Shown in pieces: positions 3,409 to 24,856 of a stretch of DNA of 35,706 nt. Positions within the stretch are counted from its first letter, which is position 1. Each line of letters begins with the position of its first letter. Source of the DNA: a virus (lineage: Duplodnaviria; Heunggongvirae; Uroviricota; Caudoviricetes); IMG/VR virus record IMGVR_UViG_2698536570_000003, positions 1 through 35,706 of that record. One strand, 5' to 3'. A program made the position numbers and the translations under genes. The notes beneath the pieces are model-generated. The model did not search any database, was not told the origin of the DNA, and saw nothing but the letters and a program-made list of their open reading frames with translations.

Positions 3409-4161
3409 ATGAACCTTGAAGCCTTACCAAAATATTACTCCCCAAAATCTCCAAAATTGAGCGATGACGCTCCAGCGACAGGCACCGGTTGTTTAACAAT
3501 TACGGATGTAATGGCAGCGCAGGGGATGGTGCAGTCGAAAGCACCACTTGGGTTGGCCTTATTTCTGGCAAAAGTTGGTGTTCAGGACCCTCAGTTTGCG
3601 ATTGAAGGCCTGCTAAATTACGCGATGGCACTGGATAACCCGACATTGAACAAATTGAGTGAAGAAATCCGGTTACAGATTATTCCTTACCTCGTGAGTT
3701 TTGCCTTTGCTGATTACTCCAGGTCTGCGGCAAGTAAGGCTCGCTGTGAGCATTGTTCAGGTACGGGATTTTATAATGTATTGCGCGAAGTGGTGAAACA
3801 CTACAGACGCGGGGAATCTGTAATCAAGGAAGAATGGGTGAAGGAACTATGTCAGCATTGCCATGGTAAGGGCGAAGCCAGCACAGCGTGCAGAGGGTGT
3901 AAGGGTAAAGGGATTGTTCTGGATGAAAAAAGAACCCGGTTTCATGGCGTACCGGTATATAAGATTTGTGGGCGTTGTAATGGAAACCGGTTTAGTCGTT
4001 TACCGACCACGCTGGCACGACGTCATGTCCAGAAGCTGGTACCAGACCTGACCGATTATCAGTGGTATAAGGGGTATGCGGACGTCATTGGTAAACTGGT
4101 AACAAAGTGCTGGCAGGAAGAAGCATACGCGGAAGCGCAATTGAGGAAGGTGACGAGATAA
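3409..4161 (+). CDS. quuQ: Q-family late-gene antiterminator (250 aa)
   Basis: Several CxxC pairs (CEHCSG, CQHCHGKG, CRGCKGKG, CGRCNG); sits before the lysis cassette; start chosen at MNLEALPKYY to give 250 aa. Confidence 0.75.
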   Translation: MNLEALPKYYSPKSPKLSDDAPATGTGCLTITDVMAAQGMVQSKAPLGLALFLAKVGVQDPQFAIEGLLNYAMALDNPTLNKLSEEIRLQIIPYLVSFAFADYSRSAASKARCEHCSGTGFYNVLREVVKHYRRGESVIKEEWVKELCQHCHGKGEASTACRGCKGKGIVLDEKRTRFHGVPVYKICGRCNGNRFSRLPTTLARRHVQKLVPDLTDYQWYKGYADVIGKLVTKCWQEEAYAEAQLRKVTR

Positions 4162-4270
4162 ATGATTTTTGCTGAAGATGGCGACATGATGTTTGCATTT
4201 TTCAAAAAATATGGATAAAATTTTTTCAACGATGGGCTTTGTATACCCGACGTTAAGAAAAAGTAGAAAA

Positions 4271-4297
4271 CCCGCTGATGAGCGGGTTTTGTGCTTT
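4271..4297 (+). terminator. tR'-like intrinsic terminator downstream of Q
   Basis: Hairpin CCCGCT-GATG-AGCGGG followed by TTTTGTGCTTT. Confidence 0.45.
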
Positions 4298-4582
4298 AAA
4301 TGGGGCAATGGTAATGTTGAATCTCATCCCGGGACTCATGTCTGTTAACTTATTATTTAGCTGGTGACTTGGTTATTTGCCTGATGTTTAAAATGTTTTC
4401 TTCCAGTACAATGTCCCTAAACACAATGAGTCTGCTTATTATATTATTAGCAGAGCTATTACGGCCAAAGTACAGCATAAGCTTTTAAAGCCAATCAACC
4501 AGTCATCAAGACAGACGGGGTTATTCATAAAAACTCTCCATGTGTGATCCGATGGGGCCTGAAATTAAAGCTTTAATATAGC

Positions 4583-4795
4583 TCATGAAAGGTAAACATT
4601 GGCAGCTGAAGGGCCACGCAGACCATTTATCCGGCAAAATTCCACGCGTAATCCGGTGGTAATTTCTTCTGCATCGCGGAGATTGAGCGCTGAAACATGA
4701 AGCTGGACATCGATACGACCATCGGATGGGGTGATAAGACCCTTGCCGCTTTTGCCGTCAAAGGTTTTGACAATTCCTGTCATTTTACGGGACAA
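4583..4795 (-). CDS. cspF: cold-shock protein family (70 aa)
   Basis: [23 protein letters not shown]... cold-shock domain; Qin synteny. Confidence 0.85.
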
Positions 4796-5095
4796 AAAAA
4801 TTCCTTAATACTGATAACTTGGCGCACTATACACACGTTCCTGAAGAAAGCTATAGTTTTTTGATGGGGTTGAAGATGGCTGGATGTCTAAAATAAACAT
4901 TGCTTCATATGTTCAACTATGCGTTAATGATTGCGTCGGTTTGAAGAACAGACGATATACGAAGTAGTTTACTAAAGCAGTTCTCATTTCAGGTGTTATT
5001 CACTTATTCCTTCTTTGAGTCTCTCCAATTAAGTACGAAGTCGTTTCTGTTATGCAAACCATTTATGCCGAAAGGCTCAAGTTAAGGAATGTAGA

Positions 5096-5311
5096 ATGTC
5101 AAATAAAATGACTGGTTTAGTAAAATGGTTTAACGCTGATAAAGGTTTCGGCTTTATTTCTCCTGTTGATGGTAGTAAAGATGTGTTTGTGCATTTTTCT
5201 GCGATTCAGAATGATAATTATCGAACCTTATTTGAAGGTCAAAAGGTTACCTTCTCTATAGAGAGTGGTGCTAAAGGTCCTGCAGCAGCAAATGTCATCA
5301 TTACTGATTAA
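5096..5311 (+). CDS. cspB: cold-shock protein (71 aa)
   Basis: [23 protein letters not shown]...; RNP motifs KGFGFI and VFVHF; long 5' leader. Confidence 0.9.
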
Positions 5312-5583
5312 AATTCATCGCTCGTCTGTATACGATAACGAAGAAGGCTGATGCCTGAGTAGAGATACGGACAGAGTAGTGAATATTGGATCTCTTTAAT
5401 AAAAAGTAAGGAGGTCCAATACATGAAACAATGGCTAGCATATTTGGCAAAATCTTAATCAGGAAAAGTATGCTAACCATTGTGGTGAAGTGCAGGTTTG
5501 CTGCATGAATAGTTTTACAGCAGAAGCTAACTGCTGGCATGGCAAAACAAAGTGCGTAAGTGGATGACTCCCACAAAAAGCAC

Positions 5584-5606
5584 CACAATCTCAAACCCGC
5601 TCAGGC
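5584..5606 (+). terminator. intrinsic terminator-like hairpin
   Basis: AACCCGC-TCAG-GCGGGTT followed by TTTTTTATT. Confidence 0.45.
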
Positions 5607-5674
5607 GGGTTTTTTATTATCTGCTTTAAATATATTATTAAAATATAAAAAATACTTGTTACTAATAAAATCAA

Positions 5675-5896
5675 TCAGGCTACAGCTTTAAGATTTGTCT
5701 GGAATACTTTGTTGCAATGAGGGCAGATCAAAAGGGCACCTTTTTGTACTCTTGAAAAACTGTGTTCTGACTCTTGGGTGCAGTTTGGGCAGGAACATTT
5801 AACGAGATAATTACGGCGTGATTTTGAGTTTTTACGTTCTGACATAGGCTTTTCCTGTATAAATGGCCGTATACAGTACACTAAATATGAAAACAT
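5675..5896 (-). CDS. small zinc-ribbon-like protein (CSCPNC...CPHCNK); start uncertain
   Basis: Two Cys pairs spaced as a zinc ribbon; ORF in track. Confidence 0.35.
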   Translation of the reverse strand: MFSYLVYCIRPFIQEKPMSERKNSKSRRNYLVKCSCPNCTQESEHSFSRVQKGALLICPHCNKVFQTNLKAVA

Positions 5897-6064
5897 TTCT
5901 CGTATTATTATTTTATATATGACTTTCTTTCAAAATAATTACCCACATTTTTAATGTGTATGTTTTTTTAGCGCCGTTGAGAACAACGTGTGCTGTCAAA
6001 ACTACCCCGTAGACTCCGATCTTTTCAAACATATTGCACCATCCGTGTACATCGGGGTGAGGAT

Positions 6065-6280
6065 ATGAAATCAATGGATAAGTTAACAACAGGTGTTGCC
6101 TATGGCACATCGGCGGGTAATGCTGGTTTCTGGGCATTGCAGTTACTCGATAAAGTAACTCCGTCACAGTGGGCTGCAATCGGTGTGCTGGGTAGCCTGG
6201 TTTTTGGCCTGCTGACGTATCTGACAAATCTTTATTTCAAGATTAAAGAAGACAGGCGTAAGGCTGCGAGAGGAGAGTAA
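6065..6280 (+). CDS. essQ: class II holin (phage 21 S-like pinholin, 71 aa)
   Basis: [28 protein letters not shown]... with two TM segments and charged C-terminus; directly before the endolysin. Confidence 0.8.
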
Positions 6281-6284
6281 TCCA

Positions 6285-6592
6285 ATGACTCAAGACTATG
6301 AACTGGTTGTGAAAGGAGTCCGTAATTTTGAGAATAAAGTTACGGTAACTGTAGCCTTACAGGACAAAGAACGCTTTGACGGTGAAATTTTTGACCTGGA
6401 TGTCGCCATGGACCGTGTTGAAGGAGCTGCGCTGGAGTTTTATGAGGCAGCAGCCAGAAGGAGCGTCCGGCAAGTCTTCCTGGAAGTAGCAGAAAAATTG
6501 TCAGAAAAAGTTGAGTCTTATCTGCAGCATCAGTACTCCTTTAAGATTGAAAATCCTGCCAATAAGCACGAGCGTCCTCATCATAAATATCT

Positions 6593-6596
<4 letters not shown>
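6285..6596 (+). CDS. ydfR: YdfR-like protein of unknown function (103 aa)
   Basis: Position between holin and lysozyme as in Qin. Confidence 0.6.
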
Positions 6597-7620
<1,024 letters not shown>

Positions 7621-7982
7621 GGTAATATTAAATCGGAACATTTACATCGCGGAATGTAAAATTTAAATAAAAAGGACTCTTCCATGAGCCAAAATTCCTG
7701 AAATCTTAAGGGTAAGATAAAAGGTCTTAATCAGAATGACACGTTTTATTAATAAATAAAGCTATTCTTTCATTGCTGTGTTTTTCTTTACAAAAGTAAT
7801 CCTTGCTATGGGTGGTTAATCATGCGTTAATGGTGTTCTGGTTTGTTACAAATTTATCTGAAGCAGTCATTGTTATAATTTTATTATTTGTACCTCTTGA
7901 GATTTCCTTGTTGGTTTTTCTCTCTGATATTTTTTTTCGGACCATTCTGCCCAAGGGCTAATTTCTTCAAAAGGTAATAATT

Positions 7983-8195
7983 ATGTCTAACAAAATGACT
8001 GGTTTAGTGAAATGGTTTAACCCTGAAAAAGGTTTTGGTTTCATCACGCCGAAAGATGGCAGCAAAGATGTGTTTGTCCATTTCTCAGCAATTCAGAGCA
8101 ACGATTTCAAAACATTAACTGAGAATCAGGAAGTTGAATTTGGTATTGAGAACGGACCTAAAGGTCCTGCCGCTGTTCATGTAGTGGCGCTTTGA
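7983..8195 (+). CDS. cspI: cold-shock protein (70 aa)
   Basis: [23 protein letters not shown]... cold-shock domain. Confidence 0.9.
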
Positions 8196-8399
8196 GGTAG
8201 ACAATATTACAAACCATATTCACTTTAGATGCCCGTGTTGTCATGGTTCCCAGTATAGAACATCATCTTTTGATGTTTCTGACATGAATCCTTTCGGGGC
8301 AAAATGTATCTTTTGTAAATCAATGATGATTACATTTGATAATATTTCACAATACTTAAATGCCAGCCGTCTGTCGTTGGATTTGAAAAAGTGAAAATG

Positions 8400-8422
8400 A
8401 AGGCTCCTTCGGGAGCTTTTTT
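8400..8422 (+). terminator. intrinsic terminator-like hairpin
   Basis: GGCTCC-TTCG-GGAGC followed by TTTTTTGC. Confidence 0.5.
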
Positions 8423-8466
8423 GCTTGGTGTCTATTCGATGGATACTCACATACTACGGTAACATC

Positions 8467-8697
8467 ATGAAAAAAATCATAGTTTTTTTTAACTCTGAAC
8501 CAGCAGTGGTAGTGCCAGCGATGACTGGAGTTAACACCATCATGCGTGAATATCCAAATGGCGAAAAAACACACCTTACTGTAATGGCCGCAGGGTTTCC
8601 ATCTCTGACCGGAGATCATAAAGTCATTTATGTAGCCGCGGATCGACATGTTACTTCAGAAGAAATTCTGGAAGCAGCAATAAGGCTCTTGAGTTGA
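8467..8697 (+). CDS. hypothetical protein (76 aa from MKKIIVFF)
   Basis: ORF in track; start moved to internal ATG; no recognisable motif. Confidence 0.35.
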   Translation: MKKIIVFFNSEPAVVVPAMTGVNTIMREYPNGEKTHLTVMAAGFPSLTGDHKVIYVAADRHVTSEEILEAAIRLLS

Positions 8698-8868
8698 TTT
8701 GATGCTATTGCATTGATAATTCAGGAAAATTCTCTTTGTCTGTTTGTGTAAAATTTAGACTATCGTATGTTGATTATTGCGATGTTTCATCTTATCTTTT
8801 ACACGTTTGCACCATATAATCGACTTACTGTGTAACTGGAAAGTCATAACAGACTAAAAGAGGAAATG

Positions 8869-9042
8869 ATGAATATTGAAAACTTAAAAACAAAAGCAGA
8901 AGCAGATATTTCTGAATATATAACAAAAAAAATTATTGAACTTAAGAAAAAGACCGGGAAAGAAGTTACCAGTATTCAGTTTACCGCACGGGAAAAAATG
9001 ACGGGTCTTGAAAGCTATGATGTCAAGATTAATTTAATCTGA
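8869..9042 (+). CDS. gnsB: GnsB-like small protein (57 aa)
   Basis: ORF below track cutoff found by hand: MNIENLKTKAEADISEYITKKIIELKKKTGKEVTSIQFTAREKMTGLESYDVKINLI; Gns family. Confidence 0.75.
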   Translation: MNIENLKTKAEADISEYITKKIIELKKKTGKEVTSIQFTAREKMTGLESYDVKINLI

Positions 9043-9193
9043 TGTATTCAATAATAAAATTTATCCATAAACCTCGTTTTTACGGGGTTTTGTTATATTT
9101 GAATGGTTCCGAATATCTAAATCACAATTGTTGATGGTTTTTATTAAACCAATGCAGTCCGGCTCAGGAGTGAGAGAAGCCGGACGTTATGGT

Positions 9194-9604
9194 TTAGCGT
9201 GGTAAGATCTGTGTAGTTTTCTGGATGCTTTCAGTAAATAGTAATGATTTATCAAAGGTATAGTAATATCTTTTTTGTTCGTGGATATTTGTAACCCACC
9301 GAAAAACTCCTGCTTTAGCAAGGTTTCTTCTGTATTCCTGAAATGTGATCTCTCTGGATTTCAGCTTATTAGAGGTCGTTTCTATAAGATGCCTATCCTT
9401 TGAAAATTTGACAGACACAATGTTTTTTAGGCCCTTTAATAACACTGTATTATCATTTTTTAATACAATATGAACATTCTCTGTGGCTAAATAGTAAATG
9501 TAATGTGAGACATTGTGACGTTTTAGCTCAGAATAAAACCATTGATAGTTTAAATCGTTTCGAACTTTATCAAATATTTGTTTAAAAATGACTACCTGAT
9601 CCAT
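9194..9604 (-). CDS. ydfO: DUF1398-family protein YdfO-like
   Basis: Sequence and synteny recall; start taken at [11 protein letters not shown]. Confidence 0.65.
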
Positions 9605-9661
9605 AGATAAACCTTCCATGTGATATGAGGGGGCGTAGTCTGCACGATTATCTAAATTGCT

Positions 9662-9895
9662 TCAATCTGGTCTGACCTGTTTTCTGAGCAATTCAGTAAT
9701 GTCACTCTTTTCTTTGTTTGCTTCAGAAGAAACTCTTTTTTCTGAGCACAGTCTCCGGCGGCAGGCTTCAATGACCCAGGCTGAGAAATTCCCGGACCCT
9801 TTTTGCTCAAGAGCGATGTTAATTTGTTCAATCATTTGGTTAGGAAAGCGGATGTTGCGGGTTGTTGTTCTGCGGGTTCTGTTCTTCGTTGACAT
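9662..9895 (-). CDS. ynfO: small basic protein, YnfO-like (77 aa)
   Basis: Length and position match Qin ynfO; basic N-terminus. Confidence 0.5.
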   Translation of the reverse strand: MSTKNRTRRTTTRNIRFPNQMIEQINIALEQKGSGNFSAWVIEACRRRLCSEKRVSSEANKEKSDITELLRKQVRPD

Positions 9896-9960
9896 GAGGT
9901 TGCCCCGTATTCAGTGTCGCTGATTTGTATTGTCTGAAGTTGTTTTTACGTTAAGTTGAT

Positions 9961-10283
9961 GCAGATCAATTAATACGATACCTGCGTCATAATTGATTAT
10001 TTGACGTGGTTTGATGGCCTCCACGCACGTTGTGATATGTAGATGATAATCATTATCACTTTACGGGTCCTTTCCGGTGATCCGACAGGTTACGGGGCGG
10101 CGACCTCGCGGGTTTTCGCTATTTATGAAAATTTTCCGGTTTAAGGTGTTTCCGTTCTTCTTCGTCGTAACTTAATGTTTTTATTTAAAATACCCCCTGA
10201 AAAGAAAGGAAACGACAGGTGCTGAAAGCGAGCTTTTTGGCCTCTGTCGTTTCCTTTCTCTGTTTTTGTCCGTGGAATGAGCA
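9961..10283. other. lambda-type cos site: cosQ-side right-end sequence, cosN 12-nt cohesive end GGGCGGCGACCT at 10095-10106, cosB up to Nu1
   Basis: 9961-10093 matches the recalled last ~130 nt of the lambda genome; 10095 onward matches the recalled first nt of the lambda genome up to Nu1. Confidence 0.85.
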
Positions 10284-10803
10284 ATGGAAGTCAACAAAAA
10301 GCAGCTGGCTGACATTTTCGGTGCGAGTATCCGTACCATTCAGAACTGGCAGGAACAGGGAATGCCCGTTCTGCGAGGCGGTGGCAAGGGTAATGAGGTG
10401 CTTTATGACTCTGCCGCCGTTATAAGATGGTATGCCGAAAGGGATGCTGAAATTGAGAACGAAAAGCTGCGCCGGGAAGTTGAAGAACTGCGGCAGGCCA
10501 GCGAGACAGATCTCCAGCCAGGGACTATTGAGTACGAACGCCATCGACTTACGCGTGCGCAGGCCGACGCACAGGAGCTGAAAAATGCCAGAGACTCCGC
10601 TGAAGTGGTGGAAACCGCATTCTGTACTTTCGTGCTGTCGCGGATCGCAGGTGAAATTGCCAGTATTCTCGACGGGATCCCCCTGTCGGTGCAGCGGCGT
10701 TTTCCGGAACTGGAAAACCGACATGTTGATTTCCTGAAACGGGATATCATCAAAGCCATGAACAAAGCAGCCGCGCTGGATGAACTGATACCGGGGTTGC
10801 TGA

Positions 10804-10829
<26 letters not shown>
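10284..10829 (+). CDS. nu1: terminase small subunit Nu1 (181 aa)
   Basis: Near-identical to recalled lambda Nu1. Confidence 0.95.
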
Positions 10830-14510
<3,681 letters not shown>

Positions 14511-16227: not shown

Positions 16228-17160
16228 ATGTCGATGTACACAACCGCCCAGCTGCTGGCGGCAAATGAGCAGAAATTTAAGTTTGATCCGCTGTTTCTGC
16301 GTCTCTTTTTCCGTGAGAGCTATCCCTTCACTACGGAGAAAGTCTATCTCTCACAAATTCCGGGACTGGTAAACATGGCGCTGTACGTTTCGCCGATTGT
16401 TTCCGGTGAGGTTATCCGTTCCCGTGGCGGCTCCACCTCTGAATTTACGCCGGGATATGTCAAACCCAAGCATGAGGTGAATCCGCAGATGACCCTGCGT
16501 CGCCTGCCGGATGAAGATCCACAGAATCTGGCGGACCCGGCTTACCGCCGCCGTCGCATCATCATGCAGAACATGCGAGACGAAGAGCTGGCCATTGCTC
16601 AGGTCGAAGAGATGCAGGCAGTTTCTGCCGTGCTCAAGGGCAAATACACCATGACCGGTGAAGCCTTCGATCCGGTTGAGGTGGATATGGGCCGCAGTGA
16701 AGCGAATAACATCACACAGTCTGGCGTCACGGAGTGGAGCAAGCGTGACAAGTCCACGTATGACCCGACCGACGATATCGAAGCCTACGCGCTGAACGCC
16801 AGCGGCGTGGTGAATATCATCGTGTTTGACCCGAAAGGCTGGGCGCTGTTCCGTTCCTTCAAAGCCGTCAGGGAGAAGCTGGATACCCGTCGCGGCTCTC
16901 ATTCCGAACTGGAGACAGCGGTAAAAGACCTGGGCAAAGCGGTGTCTTATAAGGGAATGTATGGCGATGTGGCCATCGTCGTGTATTCCGGACAGTACGT
17001 GGAAAACGGCGTCAAAAAGAACTTCCTGCCGGACAACACGATGGTGCTGGGTAACACTCATGCACGCGGTCTGCGCACCTATGGCTGTATTCAGGATGCG
17101 GATGCATTGAGTGAGGGTATTAATGCGTCTCCCCGTTATCCGAAAAACTGGAAGACATGA
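16228..17160 (+). pseudogene. E: major capsid protein gpE, N-terminal 312 codons, interrupted; stop codon TGA supplied by the first bases of the insertion
   Basis: MSMYTTAQLLAANEQKFKFDPLF... matches lambda E up to ...PRYPKNWKT, then stop; the missing 29-codon C-terminus is at 24857-24952. Confidence 0.88.
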
Positions 17161-17202
17161 TCCACCGCGCGATAAATAAGCCGCAATCCGTGAGATAAAT
17201 GG
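17158..17202. repeat. left terminal region of insertion (TGATCC..., GATAAATA at 17171, CCGTGAGATAAATGG at 17188)
   Basis: Motifs mirror the right end in reverse complement. Confidence 0.6.
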
Positions 17203-17218
17203 ACACGGTGCGGCTTTT
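17180..17218 (+). terminator. hairpin plus T-run just inside left end of insertion
   Basis: GCCGCAATCCGTG...CACGGTGCGGC followed by TTTT; would stop read-through from E. Confidence 0.4.
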
Positions 17219-17245
17219 CAGATACTGCAAAGGAATTACAAATTA

Positions 17246-19723
17246 TCAGTCGTAAGCAACCCGGCGCTTACGGGCAAGAATAGCTTCCAGCGCTCTTTCA
17301 ATCTCAGGAATGGACAGCTTAAGCGCATTCGCTACATCCGGTGCTGGTGACTTGTTCTTGCCATCAATATAGATATGGTTAATGACGTTAATCCCTGCAC
17401 CTGCCGGTGAATGTGAATCCCGGCCTCTGGATAAGGTAAGGTCGCCGCGCATATAGCGCTCTAATACGGGTGGTACTTTCGGTACATCCGGCACCATCAT
17501 ATCAGCCAGCCGCGAGGAGGCTTTTAGCGCCAGCGATGCAGACTGACCGATACCAATCGCCGCCCCTTCTGCGATGTTTGAACCGAAGCCCATAAAGACC
17601 CGGCTTGGCGAGTGAATCCCCAGCTTTTCCTTGAACCACCCGCCGACGCTATCGCCCATCTCGGTAACGGTATTCTTGAGCGACTCCCACTTATTTTTGA
17701 TACCGTTCACCAGTCCGTCAATCAGGTGACCGCCAAACTCGGTAAACTGGCCGGGAAGGTCGATGTTAAACCACTTCATGACCCCCGCAAACGCCTTGTA
17801 GAACAGCCCCAGCGGCGACCAGTTCAGGATTAGCTTACTGACGCCGAGAACGCCGCCGTTAAAGGCCGTTTTGACTTCCTCCCATCGCTGTGAGAACCAT
17901 CGACTTATTGCCCCCCAGTTGCGGTATATCAGGTATGCGCCCCCGGCGATGACGGTTATCGCAATGCCTAAGGGATTCATCATCAGCGCCCGGCCAAACC
18001 AGAGAAATGCTTTTGCAACGACCATGACGCCCCTGAACAGCCCACCTGCCAGCGCTTTACCCAGCGTCCCGGCTCCCTTCGCTACGGTACTGAATCCAGT
18101 AGCCAGCCAGCGCAACCTGCCACCAACACCAAGTGCGGCTTTCAGCTTCACCCAATGAGTGTGTACCAGAACAGCGTTTTTCCACATCCCAACAAAAGGT
18201 GAAAAAAGCAGATTAAGGCCGAGCTTCAGACCGACAGTGGCAATTTTCAGCCCCAGCAGTGCGCCCACGGTTTTTGCCACACCCTGAACAAGCGTCGGAT
18301 GTTGCTCTATCCAGAGCTTCGTTGTCTGAATCATCGGGATTAATTGCCGGGTTGCTGACACAAATGTAGGGGACAACTGATCGCCGAGAGAGATAGATAA
18401 ATCACGGGTGTTTATCATCAGGGCTTTGGTTGCTTCCAGCGGCGATTTGAGCCTTTCAGCATAGGATGCCGCCAGCAGGTCATTATCAGCCGCTTTAAGT
18501 GCACCAGAGCGGATTGCCCTGTATTTATCCATGTTAGCAAGCATAGGGCGAACGAACGCCATTACCTGCATATCGGTGAACATCTCACCCAGCCCAAAGT
18601 TTTTAGCCAGACTTTGTAAGGCCTCGTCCCGCGCTTTGTTGTCCTGAATTTGCATTGCGGATTTAAAACCAGCCAGAGCTTTCGGACTCGTTGCATTAAG
18701 GTATCTTTGGGTTACATCCAGCATACCTTCAATGGGGGAAACTCCGGCTGCTTTATAATTCGCAAGAGACCCCATCAGGTCGATACCTAAATCGGCAAAT
18801 CGCTTCTGCGTATCAGGCGCAAAAATCTTGGTGAGGAAGTTCCTGAAATTGTTTGCAGTCTCATCCGGTGAACCTGAACCAATCATAGCGACCTGCAAAC
18901 TGGCCCCAATCTCCGCCACTGCATCCTTACCGTCTGCAATACCCTGCATCATCGGCGCAAGCGACTGAATCCATTTCACCTGGTCAGGGATTTCAAAAGA
19001 CCCCTGGTCACCTGCGTAGGCCATGATGTTCTGTACCGCGCCAAATTCTTTTGCGCTGCCTTTCAGCGAGTTTTGCCACACCGCCGCAACCTTTGCCCAT
19101 TCCGTTCCTGCGGTACGGGTTGCCGTGGCTGCACGGGCGATATTCGGCATGTAGTTGCCAATATCTGAAAGCCCGTCAATGTTATCGCTGATAAGTGAAC
19201 CAACGGCGTCCTGCATATCGCTCTGATACTGGTTGTATTTGAGCGACCACCCTTTGATTTGCTCTCCCAGAGTCTTACGGGTTTTATCGTCATATTTCGC
19301 TGTGATTGACATATCAATCATTTTATCTTCAAACGATGCCGACTGTTCTATAGCCGGGGACACAAGACTGTAAGCAGCCCTGACTTGTGCATACGCCTCT
19401 ACTCCCTGACCGTAGAGCGCCATGCGGTTAGATTTCAGGGCGTCAGAAGTGGCAGACGCTGCCGACAGGCGGGACTGCTGGCGGTTAAGCTGTTCCAGCG
19501 TTCTGCCGACCCGTTGCAGGTCATTGTTCAGGCGCGAGGCTACGCCCGAACCAACCTGACCGTAACGCTGCATGGCGCGTGACAGGCTGCTTTGCTGCTC
19601 CGTCAGTCGGCGTGAGGTGTCGCCGAGAGAATCCAGAGTACGCCGGGTACTGCTCATCGCGGAACGAAAACTGCTCCCGACAATGCCGCCAATCATCACG
19701 CCAACAGAAAAATTATTGCTCAT
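17246..19723 (-). CDS. tape-measure-like protein (825 aa)
   Basis: Long helical N-terminal part, Gly/Trp/Phe-rich hydrophobic middle, C-terminal GIHSPSRVF-type motif; no search run. Confidence 0.55.
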   Translation of the reverse strand: MSNNFSVGVMIGGIVGSSFRSAMSSTRRTLDSLGDTSRRLTEQQSSLSRAMQRYGQVGSGVASRLNNDLQRVGRTLEQLNRQQSRLSAASATSDALKSNRMALYGQGVEAYAQVRAAYSLVSPAIEQSASFEDKMIDMSITAKYDDKTRKTLGEQIKGWSLKYNQYQSDMQDAVGSLISDNIDGLSDIGNYMPNIARAATATRTAGTEWAKVAAVWQNSLKGSAKEFGAVQNIMAYAGDQGSFEIPDQVKWIQSLAPMMQGIADGKDAVAEIGASLQVAMIGSGSPDETANNFRNFLTKIFAPDTQKRFADLGIDLMGSLANYKAAGVSPIEGMLDVTQRYLNATSPKALAGFKSAMQIQDNKARDEALQSLAKNFGLGEMFTDMQVMAFVRPMLANMDKYRAIRSGALKAADNDLLAASYAERLKSPLEATKALMINTRDLSISLGDQLSPTFVSATRQLIPMIQTTKLWIEQHPTLVQGVAKTVGALLGLKIATVGLKLGLNLLFSPFVGMWKNAVLVHTHWVKLKAALGVGGRLRWLATGFSTVAKGAGTLGKALAGGLFRGVMVVAKAFLWFGRALMMNPLGIAITVIAGGAYLIYRNWGAISRWFSQRWEEVKTAFNGGVLGVSKLILNWSPLGLFYKAFAGVMKWFNIDLPGQFTEFGGHLIDGLVNGIKNKWESLKNTVTEMGDSVGGWFKEKLGIHSPSRVFMGFGSNIAEGAAIGIGQSASLALKASSRLADMMVPDVPKVPPVLERYMRGDLTLSRGRDSHSPAGAGINVINHIYIDGKNKSPAPDVANALKLSIPEIERALEAILARKRRVAYD

Positions 19724-19755
19724 GGTTCACTCCGGTAATGAGTGGTTCGGTGGCG

Positions 19756-20349
19756 TCATTCGGTCAGGGACAGGCCGCTGATTCCGGTAATCCCGGCAAT
19801 TTCCTCGCTGACAGCCATCAGTTCACTTTCAAGCCCGGTACGTTCGCTGACCAGCGCCGCAACGGTCTTACGGCGTTCTGCCAGTGACGGAAGTTTGTCA
19901 TTGCCCCACACCACGCTTTTATCCTTCTTAAGCGCTTCGGTCAGGCGGGTGGCGACCACATCCGGGAAGAAAAAGCAGAGCTTGCGCATAACCGCCATCC
20001 CGGTATCAGCCGGGGAGATGTTTCCACCCAACCCCACCAGACGGAACAGGCCGGAAATATCGCCGCTCTCATTCTCCAGATTGCCCCAGCGTTCGGCGTT
20101 CCCTTCACTGCCGGAACTGTTGCAGAGGACACGCTTGAATGACTGATATTCTTCCTGCCCGAATCGCTCAATATATTCAGGAATGAAAGAACAGTAATCA
20201 TTAAGCGATAAAGGCATATCCTGTAATGTGGTTATTTCGCCGTTAATTTCACTAATGCGGCGAGAGAGTTTTTCTTTCTGCTCATTCAGGGAGGCAAGAT
20301 TATTTTTAACGGCGTTCAGTGCTTCGATAAGGGAAATAACTGGTTTCAT
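19756..20349 (-). CDS. hypothetical protein with N-terminal coiled coil (197 aa); chaperone or scaffold candidate
   Basis: ORF in track, directly upstream of the tape-measure-like gene. Confidence 0.4.
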   Translation of the reverse strand: MKPVISLIEALNAVKNNLASLNEQKEKLSRRISEINGEITTLQDMPLSLNDYCSFIPEYIERFGQEEYQSFKRVLCNSSGSEGNAERWGNLENESGDISGLFRLVGLGGNISPADTGMAVMRKLCFFFPDVVATRLTEALKKDKSVVWGNDKLPSLAERRKTVAALVSERTGLESELMAVSEEIAGITGISGLSLTE

Positions 20350-20350
20350 T

Positions 20351-20965
20351 TTAATAACTCCAGATAAAAGGCGTGGTGAGTGTGAGTGCTTCGGAATAGG
20401 AGACGTTACAGGCTTCGCTTACATCCTTTATTAAAAGGTGCTGCGCTGCTCTCTGGCTGTCAGCTATGCCGTCGAACTCTGAGAAATAAACGTGTGATTC
20501 ATTGTGACCAAAACAGACCGGGTAAGCGCTTTCCATAAATTCCACCTGCTCCAGCCCTTTAACGGCTGGCGGCTGTGAGCCGAGAAAACCGATATGGCGT
20601 AGATACCAAGCTCCGGTGCCTGCCGGGTTGCTGGCCTCGCCGGGCTTATAGAATGACGCAGATACTTTCCTGTAACGCCCTGAGCGCACCAGCCCCAGCA
20701 GGGTATCATCCGGTTTTACCAGTGCGAAAAGCCTGCCGTTCTTGCTTATCAGTCCGGTGGTTTCGCCATAGGCCGGGCTGTTACTGGCCGGATGCCCCAG
20801 ACACAGCGGCGCACCGTAACCCGCGCTGCGATAGCCGTTATAGGCCGCTGCCATGTTGTCGATATCCTCGTCGGAAAAGCTGATTTCCTGTCCCGCCATC
20901 GCGGTATGCGTTCCCGCCCGGAATATCTCAATCGTTTTCCAGTTGCCCAAATTAAGATTTGTCAT
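20351..20965 (-). CDS. hypothetical protein (204 aa), tentatively Mu gpI-like protease-domain
   Basis: Motifs RSGRYRKVSASFY and LRHIGFLGSQPPAVKGL resemble my recollection of Mu-I family proteins; recall is uncertain. Confidence 0.35.
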   Translation of the reverse strand: MTNLNLGNWKTIEIFRAGTHTAMAGQEISFSDEDIDNMAAAYNGYRSAGYGAPLCLGHPASNSPAYGETTGLISKNGRLFALVKPDDTLLGLVRSGRYRKVSASFYKPGEASNPAGTGAWYLRHIGFLGSQPPAVKGLEQVEFMESAYPVCFGHNESHVYFSEFDGIADSQRAAQHLLIKDVSEACNVSYSEALTLTTPFIWSY

Positions 20966-21007
20966 TTACCTGTTCTCGGTTGTGATGTGTAAACAGTGCT
21001 TTGCTGC

Positions 21008-21382
21008 TTAGTGTCTGGCAGCGCTATCTTTCAGGCTGTTTCTGTATTCACGGCGTTTTTGGGCGATAATGTTGTAAATCCATTGCAGGGAATAGCCGTA
21101 TTTTTTCGCTATTTCAGCGATGGGAATACCTTCATTAAAGTCTGCAAAAACCAGATCATATTTCTCTTCATTCTGGTCTTTTGTTCCTTTTGGGAAGTAA
21201 AGGTTAAGCCCGCCGTATACATCTGACAGATACGCCATGATGTCTACAGCGATAGATTCAGACTGACGTTTATCGACACCGTACATGACAAGGCGGCAGG
21301 AAATGTGCGTAGCCATATCACTAAGCACTTCGGCAGATTGACGCATTTTTTGTTTGTTGGTCATGACTATCACCCGTTGCAA
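21008..21382 (-). CDS. Mor-family transcriptional activator-like protein (124 aa)
   Basis: C-terminal half (YGGLNLYFPKG...FADFNEGIPIAEIAKKYGYSLQWIYNIIAQKRR) aligns by eye with Mu Mor HTH region. Confidence 0.55.
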   Translation of the reverse strand: MQRVIVMTNKQKMRQSAEVLSDMATHISCRLVMYGVDKRQSESIAVDIMAYLSDVYGGLNLYFPKGTKDQNEEKYDLVFADFNEGIPIAEIAKKYGYSLQWIYNIIAQKRREYRNSLKDSAARH

Positions 21383-21603
21383 TATCAGTAATTCAGTCAG
21401 AAAAGGCTTTATAAAGCTTTACAGCGTGCGACTGGCGGTAAAGGCGAACCTTGACCGCAGCAAACCAGCCTGACGGCTTAGAAAGCGTTACAGCACCTTG
21501 TTAAAGTCAGTTAATAATATCGGGTGTGGGCGGGGATGTTTTTTAATGTACTTTAGATATGAAGAAGCCCCTCAGAGGAGGGGCTTCGCGGGATTACGCC
21601 AGA

Positions 21604-21894
21604 TTATTGAGGCCGTCTGTCTTTCCTCAATCCATCAAGTAGCGCCATTGCATCAGTAACCAGTATGCCAGCAGCATCCGTAACCATAGAAACATCAGAG
21701 GATGCACATGATTTATCCGTACCTAATGTAGACGCAAAATCAAGTAGCTTACGAACTGCATCAAGTCGGTAGGTGGCAGAGTCGTAAATTAACTCCTGAT
21801 TAGCATCAGTCTTTAAAAACATAATATCATCAGAGGCACCTTGTGAAAATGACGGCATCGCACGGAAAGTATTTTGAGTTTCAGCCTGTTTCAT
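21604..21894 (-). CDS. hypothetical protein (96 aa)
   Basis: ORF in operon context, overlaps neighbour by 4 nt. Confidence 0.35.
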   Translation of the reverse strand: MKQAETQNTFRAMPSFSQGASDDIMFLKTDANQELIYDSATYRLDAVRKLLDFASTLGTDKSCASSDVSMVTDAAGILVTDAMALLDGLRKDRRPQ

Positions 21895-22652
21895 TGTGCA
21901 GCCCTCCGGCTAATAGCGAATTTATTATAAACTTCATAACTGGCAGCATTCAGTCCGGGGTTGTATTTATCAGCCAGAGCACAGGCAATCATATGTTCAA
22001 TAAATTTTGTTATTGCGTTAAGTTCGGTTTCGTCTGAATAACGCAATGCCACTTTGAGTAACTCGCGGCAATATTGCTTTTTATTCTCTTCGATTTGGCC
22101 TGATTGTTTTATTCCTGCCTTTTTATCTAACTCGTCCTCAACAGGCAAAGATGAGATATCCTCTTTATTGGTTAGCGTTCTTTCGCAAATAATATCTTCA
22201 CCAGATTGAATTACGCGCTGCAACTCTCTGGCGCTCATGCGAAGAATATCATCAAGCGTGTGGTCGTTATATGCCCCACCACTGGCAAGGAGATCCAGTG
22301 TCACTTCATCCAGCCGGGCAAGCAGATTTAACTTCGTTTTGCCGATATCTGTTTTGGCAATTGCGGCTCGTGGTGTGTCACCGCCGAACACATGAGCGAT
22401 TCGCATCGCTTTACGTGCATCGGGCAAGTTTATGCGCCATCTGTGAAGAAAGTTCGTAAACTCACCATGTTGCAGTTCCTCTTTACAGGCAAATATTTTC
22501 TTTCCCAAAGAAACCAAGCCTTCGGCCTCCGATGTCGTTTTAGCGTGAGAACTGTGAATCACGCCACTGACCACCGCAGATAAAACACTTTCTTGGTTTG
22601 TTCCAAATGAATCGTTAGACTTATCATTAGCCATGACTGTTATCCTACGCAT
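21891..22652 (-). CDS. hypothetical protein (253 aa, start uncertain), first gene of leftward operon
   Basis: ORF in track; translationally coupled to the 96-aa ORF. Confidence 0.4.
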   Translation of the reverse strand: MRRITVMANDKSNDSFGTNQESVLSAVVSGVIHSSHAKTTSEAEGLVSLGKKIFACKEELQHGEFTNFLHRWRINLPDARKAMRIAHVFGGDTPRAAIAKTDIGKTKLNLLARLDEVTLDLLASGGAYNDHTLDDILRMSARELQRVIQSGEDIICERTLTNKEDISSLPVEDELDKKAGIKQSGQIEENKKQYCRELLKVALRYSDETELNAITKFIEHMIACALADKYNPGLNAASYEVYNKFAISRRAAQ

Positions 22653-22772
22653 AACGGTTTACTGGTTAGGCCATAGCAAGTGCTCGCAACATTTGTTATG
22701 GCCGTTTCTCTAGACCTTTCCCTGTGTTAAGGTATAGACCTAATAAGCAAACACTAAGCTATAGGTCTATAC

Positions 22773-22964
22773 ATGTCAACTATCTTGCGAGATAAAAGCC
22801 CTAAAGGGGCAGGTAAAGCCCCGATGTTCAATGTCAGGATTTCACCAGAACTGAAAGAACAGTTTGAATCACAAGCAAAAAAAGAAGGTGTTAGCTTAGG
22901 GAATTGGCTCAAAGAGCTTGGGAGAGCAGAGCTTAAGCGCAACGGAATTGACCCGAAGGCTTAA
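22773..22964 (+). CDS. Arc/Mnt-like ribbon-helix-helix DNA-binding protein (63 aa)
   Basis: PMFNVRISPELKEQFESQAKKEGVSLGNWLKE fits the RHH pattern of P22 Arc; divergent from the leftward operon. Confidence 0.5.
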   Translation: MSTILRDKSPKGAGKAPMFNVRISPELKEQFESQAKKEGVSLGNWLKELGRAELKRNGIDPKA

Positions 22965-23000
22965 ATTTAGTTACTAAAAAACAATAGCTTAAGGTATTTT

Positions 23001-23086
23001 TGATAAATATTTATCACTTGTATTCGACATCATAGTGATAAATATTTATCATTCACAGCGCATCGGCACATGATAAAATGTTATCA
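23001..23086. promoter_or_regulatory. three 16-bp palindromic operator-like sites, 35 bp centre to centre
   Basis: TGATAAATATTTATCA at 23001-23016 and 23036-23051 (identical, perfect palindromes); TGATAAAATGTTATCA at 23071-23086. Confidence 0.6.
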
Positions 23087-23101
23087 CTTTGAGGCTAGTT
23101 T

Positions 23102-23446
23102 ATGCGTATACATGTTACTCTTAATGGCAAAAAAACAACCATATCGATAGATGACTTGCTCTTCGACTATCTTGGTGCATGGTTGGTTGAACAAAGACCC
23201 AAACTGCACTCAAAACCTAAAGAGCAGTATGACCAAGCTAAGTCTCAGATTCGTAAATATGTGCAAGATAACGCAGAAAAACTCCCATCTAAGAACCTTA
23301 GCCAGCACATACAAAATGCCATTTTAGAAATAATTATGCCGAAAGAATTAAATGAAATTCTAGAGAAAAGAGGGCCAAGATATGAGAAGAAAAAGTTTGA
23401 TGTGACCACAATTTTCCCTGATTGGGAAAATTATCTGAGAAAGTAA
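23102..23446 (+). CDS. hypothetical protein (114 aa), possible DNA-binding/regulatory
   Basis: ORF in track with GAGG RBS, directly after the operator array. Confidence 0.45.
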   Translation: MRIHVTLNGKKTTISIDDLLFDYLGAWLVEQRPKLHSKPKEQYDQAKSQIRKYVQDNAEKLPSKNLSQHIQNAILEIIMPKELNEILEKRGPRYEKKKFDVTTIFPDWENYLRK

Positions 23447-23465
23447 TTAAATCAATGGATTGTAT

Positions 23466-23607
23466 ACCGCTCAGCGCTGAGCGGTTCTGTGGCTCTAGAT
23501 CTGCCAACGTTGGCAGATTTGCCAATACCGCATTTGATTGATGGTATCGAATCGCAAATGTCCCAGCGCTGGGAATCATCCCCAAAGGCGCAGACATCTG
23601 CGCCTTT
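23466..23607. repeat. cluster of four distinct palindromes/hairpins
   Basis: ACCGCTCAGCGCTGAGCGGT (23466-23485), ATCTGCCAACGTTGGCAGAT (23499-23518), TCCCAGCGCTGGGA (23561-23574), AAAGGCGCAGA-CA-TCTGCGCCTTT (23584-23607). Confidence 0.6.
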
Positions 23608-23734
23608 GAGAAGCACGGAACTAAAATCCGTTTCACTGTATGACTGTATGGTATGAGGCTTTCAGATGCTTACTGAGGCTTAAATAAGCTAATGAAGTTT
23701 GCATCATCTGTTCCAAGTTAGTACACTTATCCCT

Positions 23735-23766
23735 GTTAGTGGATGCGTGACGCGCTCTGGTTGAGG
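23735..23766. repeat. left arm of 32-bp perfect inverted repeat
   Basis: GTTAGTGGATGCGTGACGCGCTCTGGTTGAGG; exact reverse complement at 23925-23956. Confidence 0.8.
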
Positions 23767-23820
23767 CTCATTACCTTGAACAGAGATTCATCACCTTAAG
23801 CACCCAAAGAAAAAAGCCTG

Positions 23821-23870
23821 NNNNNNNNNNNNNNNNNNNNNNNNNNNNNNNNNNNNNNNNNNNNNNNNNN
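23821..23870. other. run of 50 N (assembly gap or masked sequence of unknown true length)
   Basis: Seen directly. Confidence 0.99.
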
Positions 23871-23924
23871 GCATGTGAAACGTGTTCAAGCCCTGGCTGG
23901 ATTACGGGTGGTGCCGCTCCAGTG

Positions 23925-23956
23925 CCTCAACCAGAGCGCGTCACGCATCCACTAAC
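23925..23956. repeat. right arm of 32-bp perfect inverted repeat
   Basis: CCTCAACCAGAGCGCGTCACGCATCCACTAAC. Confidence 0.8.
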
Positions 23957-24028
23957 AATGCAACACCGTTAACCAGGCAGTGGAAGGGCTTTAATGGTGA
24001 TGCCGCGCTCCTGTAGTGGAGCAAACGG

Positions 24029-24112
24029 ATGAAGGGATTTCTTCAAATCGCTGTCATCGCTCTTAAGGCAATTGTCGCCTTTATTGAGCTGATTCTGGCC
24101 TGCTTACCGTAA
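24029..24112 (+). CDS. candidate 27-aa hydrophobic peptide (MKGFLQIAVIALKAIVAFIELILACLP), type I toxin-like
   Basis: ATG with GGAG 8 nt upstream; single predicted TM helix; followed 20 nt later by a strong terminator. Confidence 0.3.
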   Translation: MKGFLQIAVIALKAIVAFIELILACLP

Positions 24113-24133
24113 GCAACCGGGAAACGTAAGTAA

Positions 24134-24166
24134 GGCCACCGGCTCACCCCCGGTGGCCTTTAACAT
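24134..24166 (+). terminator. intrinsic terminator
   Basis: GGCCACCGG-CTCACCC-CCGGTGGCC followed by TTTAACATTTT. Confidence 0.55.
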
Positions 24167-24365
24167 TTTAAGTCTGCCTCGCCGCTCTACCGGCCATTCA
24201 TTTTTGAAGCTGGCTGAGTGTTAAGGCTAAATTTAAGGTGGCACTGACGGCTTAAATTCCTGCGATATCCTGGCATGTCGTTATGATTAAAGCGCATTAG
24301 AAACAAATTTCATCGTTCTGATTAAACATGTTTACCTGACTATTCAAAGTAAGGTAAATCTCAAT

Positions 24366-24710
24366 ATGGCACGACCTCAGACGGTTAATCAGTTACCCGA
24401 CTCTATCAAGAAGAAACTGAATAAAAAGCTGACGGAAAGTTCATTCAGCGGCTACGTTCAGCTTACTGAGTGGTTAAACTCGTTGGGATACCCGGTTTCA
24501 AAATCATCAGTGCATCGCTATGCTGAACGTCGCCGCCTGTCACTTATAGCAGGGAGCGATACTCCCGGCGCAACAGCTAACATTGTGGATACGAAACTTC
24601 GCTGTCTGGAGCTTGCCTCGCTCTCTTTAAAAACGGACGAGAAGTTGTCAGCAGATGAAGTAAAAAAATATGCTGAAAATTTGATGGGGTGGCTTTACGA
24701 CCAGAAATAA
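24366..24710 (+). CDS. HTH-containing small protein (114 aa) near right end of insertion; regulator or terminase-small-subunit-like
   Basis: Segment YVQLTEWLNSLGYPVSKSSVHRYAERRR looks like a helix-turn-helix; ORF in track. Confidence 0.45.
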   Translation: MARPQTVNQLPDSIKKKLNKKLTESSFSGYVQLTEWLNSLGYPVSKSSVHRYAERRRLSLIAGSDTPGATANIVDTKLRCLELASLSLKTDEKLSADEVKKYAENLMGWLYDQK

Positions 24711-24809
24711 TTGACTGCGCGGGAGGCGTGCCCTCCCGTTACGTATATGGAAACTGTTTTACAAATTCCCATCCAACCTTTTCCAACATCTTCCCCCATA
24801 GTCCCACAA

Positions 24810-24850
24810 TTATCTCACGGATAACCCTGTATTTATCTCATGTCTAATCA
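24810..24850. repeat. right terminal region of insertion (reverse complement carries CCGTGAGATAA at +30 and CATGAGATAAATA at +8)
   Basis: Mirrors the left end. Confidence 0.6.
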
Positions 24851-24856
24851 AAGACA

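Follow-up and report, generated by a model that had tools for sequence, protein, structure and literature searches.

We analysed a 35,706-nt stretch of viral DNA (IMG/VR record IMGVR_UViG_2698536570_000003; hereafter the window), which is 100% identical to the chromosome of Escherichia coli AW1.7 (NZ_CP073624.1). It represents a lambda-like prophage with genes for terminase A, portal, S49 protease, gpD and gpE, then FI, FII, Z, U, V, G, T and H. Between gpE and FI lies foreign DNA with six minus-strand open reading frames (ORFs; 17246-22652). These six genes are the core of a discrete, 7.75-kb mobile unit with TG...CA ends. The unit is probably a non-autonomous transposable element of the Mu-like kind, acting as a phage satellite on temperate BcepMu-like phages (Bcepmuvirus) of Enterobacterales: it lacks a full virion set, yet encodes a Mor activator, a prohead protease, a tape measure and a helical partner protein, together with a protein that has the N-terminal domain of gp27. 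We also lean, on balance, towards seeing in it the founding example of "transposable satellites", which would have neither integrase nor replicon, borrow the helper's Mu-like transposase, and re-engineer its virion through a split protease/scaffold module and a tape measure of their own. We infer that the element would be packaged in helper particles.

The element holding the six genes extends from 17158 to 24850 of the window, with the hexamer AAGACA on either side. The left copy of this target-site duplication (17152-17157) lies within the lambda-type gpE gene, and the right copy (24851-24856) is followed by the last 32 gpE codons; the gene is destroyed by the insertion. When the element and one AAGACA copy are removed in silico, a 341-aa lambda-type gpE ORF reappears, ending in ...REFTMIQSAPLMLLADPDEFVSVQLA. 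Such precise excision indicates transposition, not rearrangement. The true length of the element in RefSeq is 7754 bp; the window puts 50 N (23822-23871) in place of 111 bases.

The element begins with 5'-TGATCCACCGCGCGATAAAT... and finishes with ...ATTTATCTCATGTCTAATCA-3', and its boundaries are the same at every site compared. The outermost bases, TGATCC... and ...TAATCA, are of the TG...CA type and, as in Mu-like termini, are accompanied by inverted repeated sites: G(A/C)GATAAAT repeats (also written GAGATAAAT) are placed at offsets 12 and 35 from both ends. They occupy 17169-17177 and 17192-17200 in terminus A (TGATCCACC..., 17158-17245, plus strand), and 24831-24839 and 24808-24816 in terminus B (...TCTAATCA, 24711-24850, minus strand). 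An initial reading of the window made without database searches (the sequence-only reading) had suggested a virion-remodelling gene set of a satellite, on a mobile element that is not a phage in itself; this part of it is supported.

An element of about 7.7 kb also occurs in CX21 and MS 115-1 (dacD-sbmC interval), LR536431 (a phosphotransferase system gene) and KCJ3K291 (ybhJ), and the flanking 6-bp direct repeat differs from copy to copy. By exact-protein look-up, the identical partner protein is found in ten distinct genomic contexts. Together with copies from Yersinia, metagenomes and IMG/VR and a second copy in AW1.7, these make up 18 independent insertions (E. coli, Yersinia, metagenomes, IMG/VR), each with a perfect 6-bp duplication; a target duplication of fixed length at independent, near-random sites is typical of Mu-like transposition. 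Most sites are ordinary chromosomal genes; among the others are intergenic regions, an integrative and conjugative element, a P4-like island, a gene for a minor tail protein and a head-tail gene of HK97-like type. A single variant shows at least three different flanks among the metagenome contigs of one project. Two contigs, of 7207 bp in Pseudocitrobacter sp. 73 (GCA_008369545.1) and of 7799 bp in an IMG/VR metagenome, span exactly TG to CA with no flanks, which is the expected assembler output for one sequence present in several contexts. For packaging in helper particles, such contigs give no more than an indirect hint.

The second satellite of AW1.7, located by a query built from variant regulatory regions, belongs to the same family and resides in ynbC (L047 4134-11942, corresponding to about 2620935-2628743 of NZ_CP073624.1; 7809 bp). 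It has the duplication AGTGAA, an 827-aa tape measure, a 175-aa Mor variant and a regulatory/repressor region of another type, while its conserved parts are 86-91% identical to the window element; this amounts to two heteroimmune satellites in one genome. Altogether, the element is conserved in E. coli, Yersinia, Citrobacter, Enterobacter, Pseudocitrobacter and Dickeya, the last with a degraded copy whose genes are split, and the satellite is present in 33 of 5426 complete E. coli genomes (about 0.6%). The IMG/VR copy (L033, L034) did not turn out to be the AW1.7 locus, as its junction occurs in no complete E. coli genome. Two further copies deserve mention. One lies inside a P4-like island with an integrase, AlpA and a D5-type primase (L045, GCA_030897045.1), i.e. 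a satellite nested in a satellite. The other, the SK1144 type (L006; 23 complete genomes, several labelled O25:H4), is a truncated satellite near tRNA-Ser and infA; it has no tape measure, contains IS5, and one of its termini resembles the ABU 83972-type helper end and not the satellite's own.

The distribution of sites bears directly on the identity of the helper. The sequence-only reading had cast the interrupted lambda-like prophage in this role, the element being a parasite aimed at its capsid gene. The insertion in gpE speaks for such a relation, as do two other copies in prophage structural genes (minor tail gene L in LR882997 and the HK97-like head-tail gene). However, prophage structural genes are not the target at 15 of the 18 sites, a pattern to be expected if Mu-type targeting is near-random and neutral insertions are retained. 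Moreover, the homologues of the tape measure, protease, Mor, gp27 and DUF3102 proteins, as well as of both ends, belong to BcepMu-like transposable myoviruses with contractile tails and not to lambda, and the lambda-like phage has its own, unrelated gpH. We find a satellite of the lambda-like prophage scarcely credible: because most insertions, and most of the 17 sites other than gpE, are in ordinary chromosomal genes, the element came to lie in the capsid gene incidentally, and its helper is not the lambda-like prophage.

Neither the ORF list nor Pfam and PHROG searches reveal an integrase, a DDE transposase (MuA) or a MuB ATPase in 17158-24850, hence the element is non-autonomous. Its left 87 bp are matched at about 78% beside gin-type invertase genes in 52 other E. 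coli genomes, these being the ends of BcepMu-like prophages. As helpers we compared the prophages in agaD of TW14425 (L004) and in rstB of ABU 83972 (L009, 37.7 kb), and Escherichia phage PhiKM (Bcepmuvirus). The helper prophages also have 6-bp duplications (GGTAAA and ACAAAT), and their termini, like those of the satellite, start with TGAT and carry the G(A/C)GATAAAT repeats at offsets 12 and 35. Terminus A is the counterpart of the gin-proximal end in BcepMu-like prophages, and terminus B of the Mor-proximal end. Over the first 90 nt they are identical to the helper ends at 72/90 and 68/90 positions, respectively; between helper variants the values are 72/90 and 58/90. The identity of satellite and helper ends is therefore as high as that between two helper variants. 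A helper-type transposase gene is present in 639 of the 5426 complete E. coli genomes; for AW1.7, place counts imply one such gene along with the two satellite loci, the helper prophage itself not having been located.

Proteins of the element are 29-71% identical to those of the helper: 71% for the tape measure, 45% for residues 1-55 of the gp27-like protein, 41% for the protease N-domain, 31-34% for the DUF3102 protein and 29% for Mor. The partner, the 96-aa protein, the ribbon-helix-helix protein and an orphan 114-aa protein have no match in the helper. The gene order differs as well. On the helper map, Mor and the DUF3102 gene point against the late genes, whereas gp27 points the same way as they do. 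Relative to the tape measure and the protease, the element has each of the three turned round, so that deletions alone cannot give its gene order. Comparison with three helper loci (L004, L005 and L009) did not recover the Bcepmuvirus succession of head, tail, lysis and transposition modules, the five homologues having another order and orientation.

These data also address the possibility that the unit is a decayed fragment of a BcepMu- or Mu-like prophage, moved into the lambda-like prophage by rearrangement and devoid of any function of its own. Homologues in BcepMu-like phages for five of the nine proteins and the resemblance of both ends to phage ends fit this scenario, and truncated or degraded copies are known (the SK1144 type without tape measure and with IS5, and the Dickeya copy with split genes). 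On the other hand, the same small unit stands at 18 sites with perfect duplications and intact ends, every core gene shows a ratio of non-synonymous to synonymous substitution rates (dN/dS) of 0.05-0.29, and the partner gene is absent from the phage. Neither the modest identity to helper proteins and the three inverted genes nor the restoration of gpE by precise excision suits a rearranged fragment. A search for the six genes as an ordinary contiguous block of a known Mu- or P2-like phage found none. We thus regard this explanation as largely refuted already, and its remaining probability as very small; the earlier suggestion of a Mu-like phage remnant falls with it.

The tape-measure region of the helpers themselves is often damaged: the TW14425 prophage (L004 5276-5627) lacks the tape measure and most baseplate genes, and in the ABU 83972 helper (L009 28521-31735) a frameshift splits the tape measure into 135 and 933 aa.

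All six minus-strand ORFs in 17246-22652 are present where the sequence-only reading had placed them, and the purifying selection on every core gene (dN/dS 0.05-0.29 at dS 0.15-1.2, against five other copies) marks them as real genes. The tight packing it reported is true of two junctions, a 4-nt overlap and a 1-nt gap, but not of the others: from the first gene to the last, the overlap is followed by gaps of 221, 42, 1 and 32 nt. A hairpin and a promoter-like motif lie in the 221-nt gap, so the block probably forms two transcription units. Pfam and PHROG searches of the ORFs confirm the absence of capsid, portal, terminase and tail tube genes, and they uphold the Mor-like, protease and tape-measure assignments, as detailed below.

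The first of these putative units consists of a 253-aa DUF3102-like protein (21891-22652, minus strand; PF11300, 24.6 bits versus 24.4; PHROG 1748, E 2e-23), homologous to the product of the gene just upstream of the helper transposase, and of a 96-aa orphan (21604-21894, minus strand), which is mosaic between copies (39-98% aa). The remaining four genes, also on the minus strand, start with a Mor/C-family late transcription activator of 124 aa (21008-21382; the RefSeq start at 21364 gives 118 aa). It scores 76.6 bits against PF08765 (gathering threshold 24.9) and matches Mu Mor (1rr7) and C structures by sequence. Next is a 204-aa protein (20351-20965) made of a prohead protease domain and a C-terminal helix pair, which lacks the central scaffold region of the helper's 371-aa protease-scaffold. 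In PHROG 976, "head maturation protease", the match covers the N-terminal 145 residues (E 1.8e-45), and the protein has the HK97-type assemblin fold with an intact His-Ser-His catalytic triad; its C-terminal helices are confidently predicted in the model.

The fifth gene (19756-20349) encodes the partner protein, 197 aa, always found beside the short protease (dN/dS 0.09-0.22). In line with the coiled-coil protein of the sequence-only reading, its AlphaFold2 (AF2) model is mostly helical, with long N- and C-terminal helices; we propose that it acts as an alternative scaffold or size determinant. The last gene (17246-19723) encodes the 825-aa tail tape measure (dN/dS 0.08-0.20), recognised by PF10145 (69.7 bits versus 33.2), TIGR01760 (63.9 versus 28.8) and several tape-measure PHROGs, and 71% identical at the aa level to that of Escherichia phage PhiKM. 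It is 825-829 aa long in satellites of E. coli, Yersinia and Dickeya, compared with about 1070 aa in the ABU 83972 helper; in two satellite variants it reaches 963-1026 aa through an internal duplication. Over the last 90 residues, identity to the helper protein is no more than 29%. Sequence searches of the PDB returned no match for the protease profile, the DUF3102 protein or the gp27-like protein, NCBIfam added nothing new apart from the tape measure, and PADLOC found no defence family.

Beyond the six-gene block, the element carries a gp27-like gene (24366-24710, plus strand). Its 114-aa product contains the N-terminal domain of Mu gp27/small terminase, with homology confined to residues 1-55, and a weak late-promoter-like motif stands ahead of it at 24288.

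The protease and its partner form a module that is not limited to this element. Homologues of the protease fall into two length classes: protease-scaffold fusions of phages with 290-356 aa (371 aa in the helper), and short forms of 180-221 aa, in which the protease domain and the final SY-EA helix pair are kept and the central region is gone. The short protease is always followed by a helical partner of about 190 aa. The partners encoded by the AW1.7 type, by a Salmonella element and by two metagenomic types are all homologous to one another (39% identity at E 3e-40, with weaker links of 1e-6 to 6e-10), and no homologue exists in the helper. A profile search of 1.84 billion representatives gathered 142 partner clusters, nearly all stand-alone proteins of 175-240 aa; the partner family was found in Enterobacterales only.

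The protease-partner pair accompanied by Mor was found in three other kinds of small Mu-like element. In Salmonella enterica, an element of about 7.8 kb at three sites (L024, L025 and L026, about 3588-11413) encodes its own MuA-like transposase, MuB, GemA, Mor, Gam, the short protease and the partner, with no structural genes or tape measure. A consistent 5-bp duplication is readable at only two of the three sites. This element is related to the satellite but self-transposing. Logan metagenome contigs (L027-L030, about 8.8 kb) hold another small element, whose tape measure (969 aa) belongs to a different family (TMP_2) and which also encodes Mor, an HTH protein, the short protease, the partner, the tail-completion protein Phage_tail_S, and MuA only as an N-terminal HTH_Tnp_Mu_2 domain. 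The conservation of the protease-partner-Mor module on elements without a capsid gene argues for action on helper head assembly. As the helper fuses its protease to the scaffold, an element with a scaffold substitute would have to supply a protease that can still dock in the shell. The existence of such relatives, some with MuA/MuB retained, suggests that an entire clade of Mu-parasitising elements is yet to be explored. In an island of a different kind, with AlpA, TIR and YagK/YfjJ as neighbours, a 190-aa partner homologue (55% identity) is encoded without any protease (L010 2065-2637).

The operon of Mor, protease, partner and tape measure is preceded by a control region (21402-21587, minus strand). 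In the 221-nt gap upstream of Mor, a GC hairpin (21564-21587) comes first, then a late-promoter motif, TAAAGTACATTAAAA (21541-21555). This pattern, with 12 specified bases, has a single occurrence in the window and a single one in the 46-kb helper locus L009, where it lies 72 bp upstream of the protease-scaffold gene (chance expectation 0.01). Looser versions precede the lysis and tail operons of the helper and the gp27-like gene of the satellite. The palindrome TTTATAAAGCCTTT is found at 21402-21415, and the palindrome TTTATAAAGSCTTT is common to satellite and helper. We read the TAAAGTACATTAAAA region as a putative helper-type late promoter, whose operon would fire upon the appearance of helper Mor. 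On the other side of the block, a divergent promoter region is followed by the gene of a 63-aa ribbon-helix-helix protein of the Arc/HicB-like type (22653-22964, plus strand; protein at 22773-22964), the proposed repressor of the element. The region of the 96-aa, DUF3102 and ribbon-helix-helix genes is mosaic between copies (39-100% aa), AW1.7 having two different types, and in this it resembles a phage immunity region.

We now propose a life cycle for the element as a satellite of BcepMu-like phages. It would stay silent under its own ribbon-helix-helix repressor until a helper is induced or infects the cell; the helper's MuA/MuB-type transposase would then act in trans on the element ends and replicate it by transposition. 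Helper Mor would switch on the late-type promoter, the element's own Mor reinforcing the effect. The scaffold-less protease and the helical partner would replace the fused protease-scaffold, directing helper capsid protein into small heads suited to about 8-10 kb. By arithmetic only, a T=3 shell has about 0.28 of the volume of a T=7 head, which for a 37.7-kb helper would correspond to about 10 kb, with room for 7.75 kb and Mu-style host flanks. The gp27-like N-domain protein may bias packaging toward the element, and could redirect or block pac recognition. Finally, the shorter tape measure with its divergent C-terminus would be built into helper tails; the gain might be another tail length or another injection end, the latter, speculatively, for entry into helper lysogens.

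Several points weigh against this reading. Packaging, small capsids and altered tails are predictions, and the promoter reading comes from one short motif. A fold search with the partner returned generic coiled coils only, with no recognisable kinship to any known scaffold. The gp27-like gene is missing from some variants, some of which have a second, full-length DUF3102-type gene instead, so its function is not universal. Co-occurrence with the helper is not strong either: most complete genomes with the satellite (CX21, MS 115-1, KCJ3K291 and LR536431) have no helper-type transposase. Moreover, integration in a new cell without a transposase of its own needs a helper there, or recombination of flanking or co-packaged host DNA.

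In a different role, the element would be a transposase-dependent hitch-hiker whose structural homologues serve mainly as dominant-negative inhibitors of Mu-like phage assembly. It would then be an interference or defence element benefiting the host, making no particles of its own and spreading only via in-trans transposition and transduction. Most carriers indeed have no helper, several products look truncated (the N-domain alone of gp27, a protease without scaffold, a shortened DUF3102 protein), and assembly-blocking defences exist, such as Tab (PMC10884400). Simple inhibitors are harder to reconcile with a full-length tape measure whose size is conserved and with a protease that seems to be active, both under strong purifying selection, and no known defence family is matched. 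We consider this role unlikely, though worth keeping in mind; interference and piracy are not exclusive, and known satellites do both.

A variable accessory module at 23001-23446 (plus strand) comprises three 16-bp palindromes TGATAAATATTTATCA, starting at 23001, 23036 and 23071, and the orphan 114-aa ORF (23102-23446). Two of the palindromes are perfect, their spacing is 35 bp, and they are present upstream of the ORF only in the AW1.7 and LR536431 variants. A role as helper operators (23001-23086) was ruled out, as none occurs in any helper locus examined; they look like an operator set for the accessory gene.

Further on, the seemingly empty 900 bp of the element probably contain a type I toxin-antitoxin module (23734-24112, plus strand; L001 10735-11174). 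The stretch hidden by the N run (L001 10823-10933) includes a rho-independent terminator and a strong sigma-70 promoter (TTGAAT-16-TATAAT), and around them stands a perfect 34-nt inverted repeat with its arms 217 nt apart. Downstream lies an ORF for a 27-aa hydrophobic peptide, MKGFLQIAVIALKAIVAFIELILACLP (24029-24112), in which Pfam finds nothing and which we take to be similar to TisB/ZorO-type toxins. Rfam gives nothing above gathering scores: the OrzO-P match at this module reaches 24.5 bits, and a weak match to an R1162-like plasmid antisense RNA in the divergent promoter region (22627-22704, minus strand; L001 9628-9705; 32 bits versus a gathering score of 55, E 0.005) is probably due to chance.

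In the searchable full-text literature, outside which most subscription journals lie, we found no description of Mu-like, BcepMu or transposable satellites. The Pseudomonas AH14a/b "helper-satellite", considered as a prior case, is unrelated to Mu. What seems to be new here is a phage satellite's way of moving. To our knowledge, the known satellite families (P4-like, PICI, cfPICI, PLE, PICMI and others) come with an integrase or a replicon and take nothing but the virion from the helper, and we know of non-autonomous transposons only as thieves of a transposase. If our proposal is true, one helper is robbed of both, which links the two kinds of hitch-hiker, and transposable phages join the list of satellite helpers. 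It also raises predictions on the need for an own prohead protease, on the role of the helical family of about 190 aa and on the gain from an own tape measure. Inserting near-randomly with 6-bp duplications, the element inactivates genes as well, here the capsid gene of the resident lambda-like prophage. Current annotation scatters its genes under the labels "hypothetical", "Mor", "tape measure" and "HicB antitoxin".

Among known systems, the BcepMu-like phages (PhiKM and the prophages of ABU 83972 and TW14425) share with the element the terminal architecture, the 6-bp duplication, the tape measure, the protease N-domain, Mor, the gp27 N-domain and the DUF3102 protein. The element differs in its size (7.75 versus 37.7 kb), in having no transposase, MuB, portal, terminase, capsid, sheath, tube, baseplate or lysis genes, and in its extra partner gene, three inverted genes and 29-71% protein identity. 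Laboratory mini-Mu/Mud derivatives have Mu ends without A/B, are transposed in trans by helper Mu and are headful-packaged from the integrated state. They resemble the element in their Mu-type ends without an own transposase, but are artificial deletion derivatives, whereas the element represents a lineage that is natural and conserved, with selection on its nine genes, a rearranged gene order and 6-bp duplications of the BcepMu type.

P4, with its helper P2, is likewise small and without capsid or tail genes; it has a homologue of the late activator (P4 delta/P2 Ogr, here Mor/helper Mor), a capsid-size function and its own immunity region, and often resides in genomes without helper. Unlike the element, P4 has its own integrase, a primase-replicon and the external scaffold Sid; the element has Mu-type ends, borrows a DDE transposase and carries a protease and a tape measure. 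Accordingly, Pfam and PHROG give no match in the element for P4-like features (integrase, alpha primase-helicase, Sid/Psu, delta/epsilon). SaPI and PICI use scaffold-type and small-terminase-type proteins to redirect helper assembly and packaging (CpmA/CpmB, Ccm, Rcm; TerS or Rpp), and in this they are alike. The element, however, has no integrase, no Stl-type master repressor, no pri-rep replicon and no fixed att site, its insertion sites being many and unrelated, and it brings a protease, plausibly because its helper fuses protease and scaffold.

Hardly any other satellites are known to encode a tape measure, according to a preprint of December 2025 (PMC12822802). Those that do include the EPIPs of Mycolicibacterium (and PLE11); in EPIP particles the tail length is altered and the capsids are smaller (PMC12822802), a precedent for satellite tape measures that go with altered tails. 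EPIPs have a serine integrase and a siphovirus helper, and are related to the element neither in sequence nor in mobility. A 2024 review of hitcher (helper-dependent) elements treats satellites and MITEs (miniature inverted-repeat transposable elements) as separate classes, the latter being moved by the transposase of a helper element that recognises their ends (PMC11389934). MITEs are non-coding and about 300 nt long, whereas the present element codes for virion-assembly and regulatory proteins.

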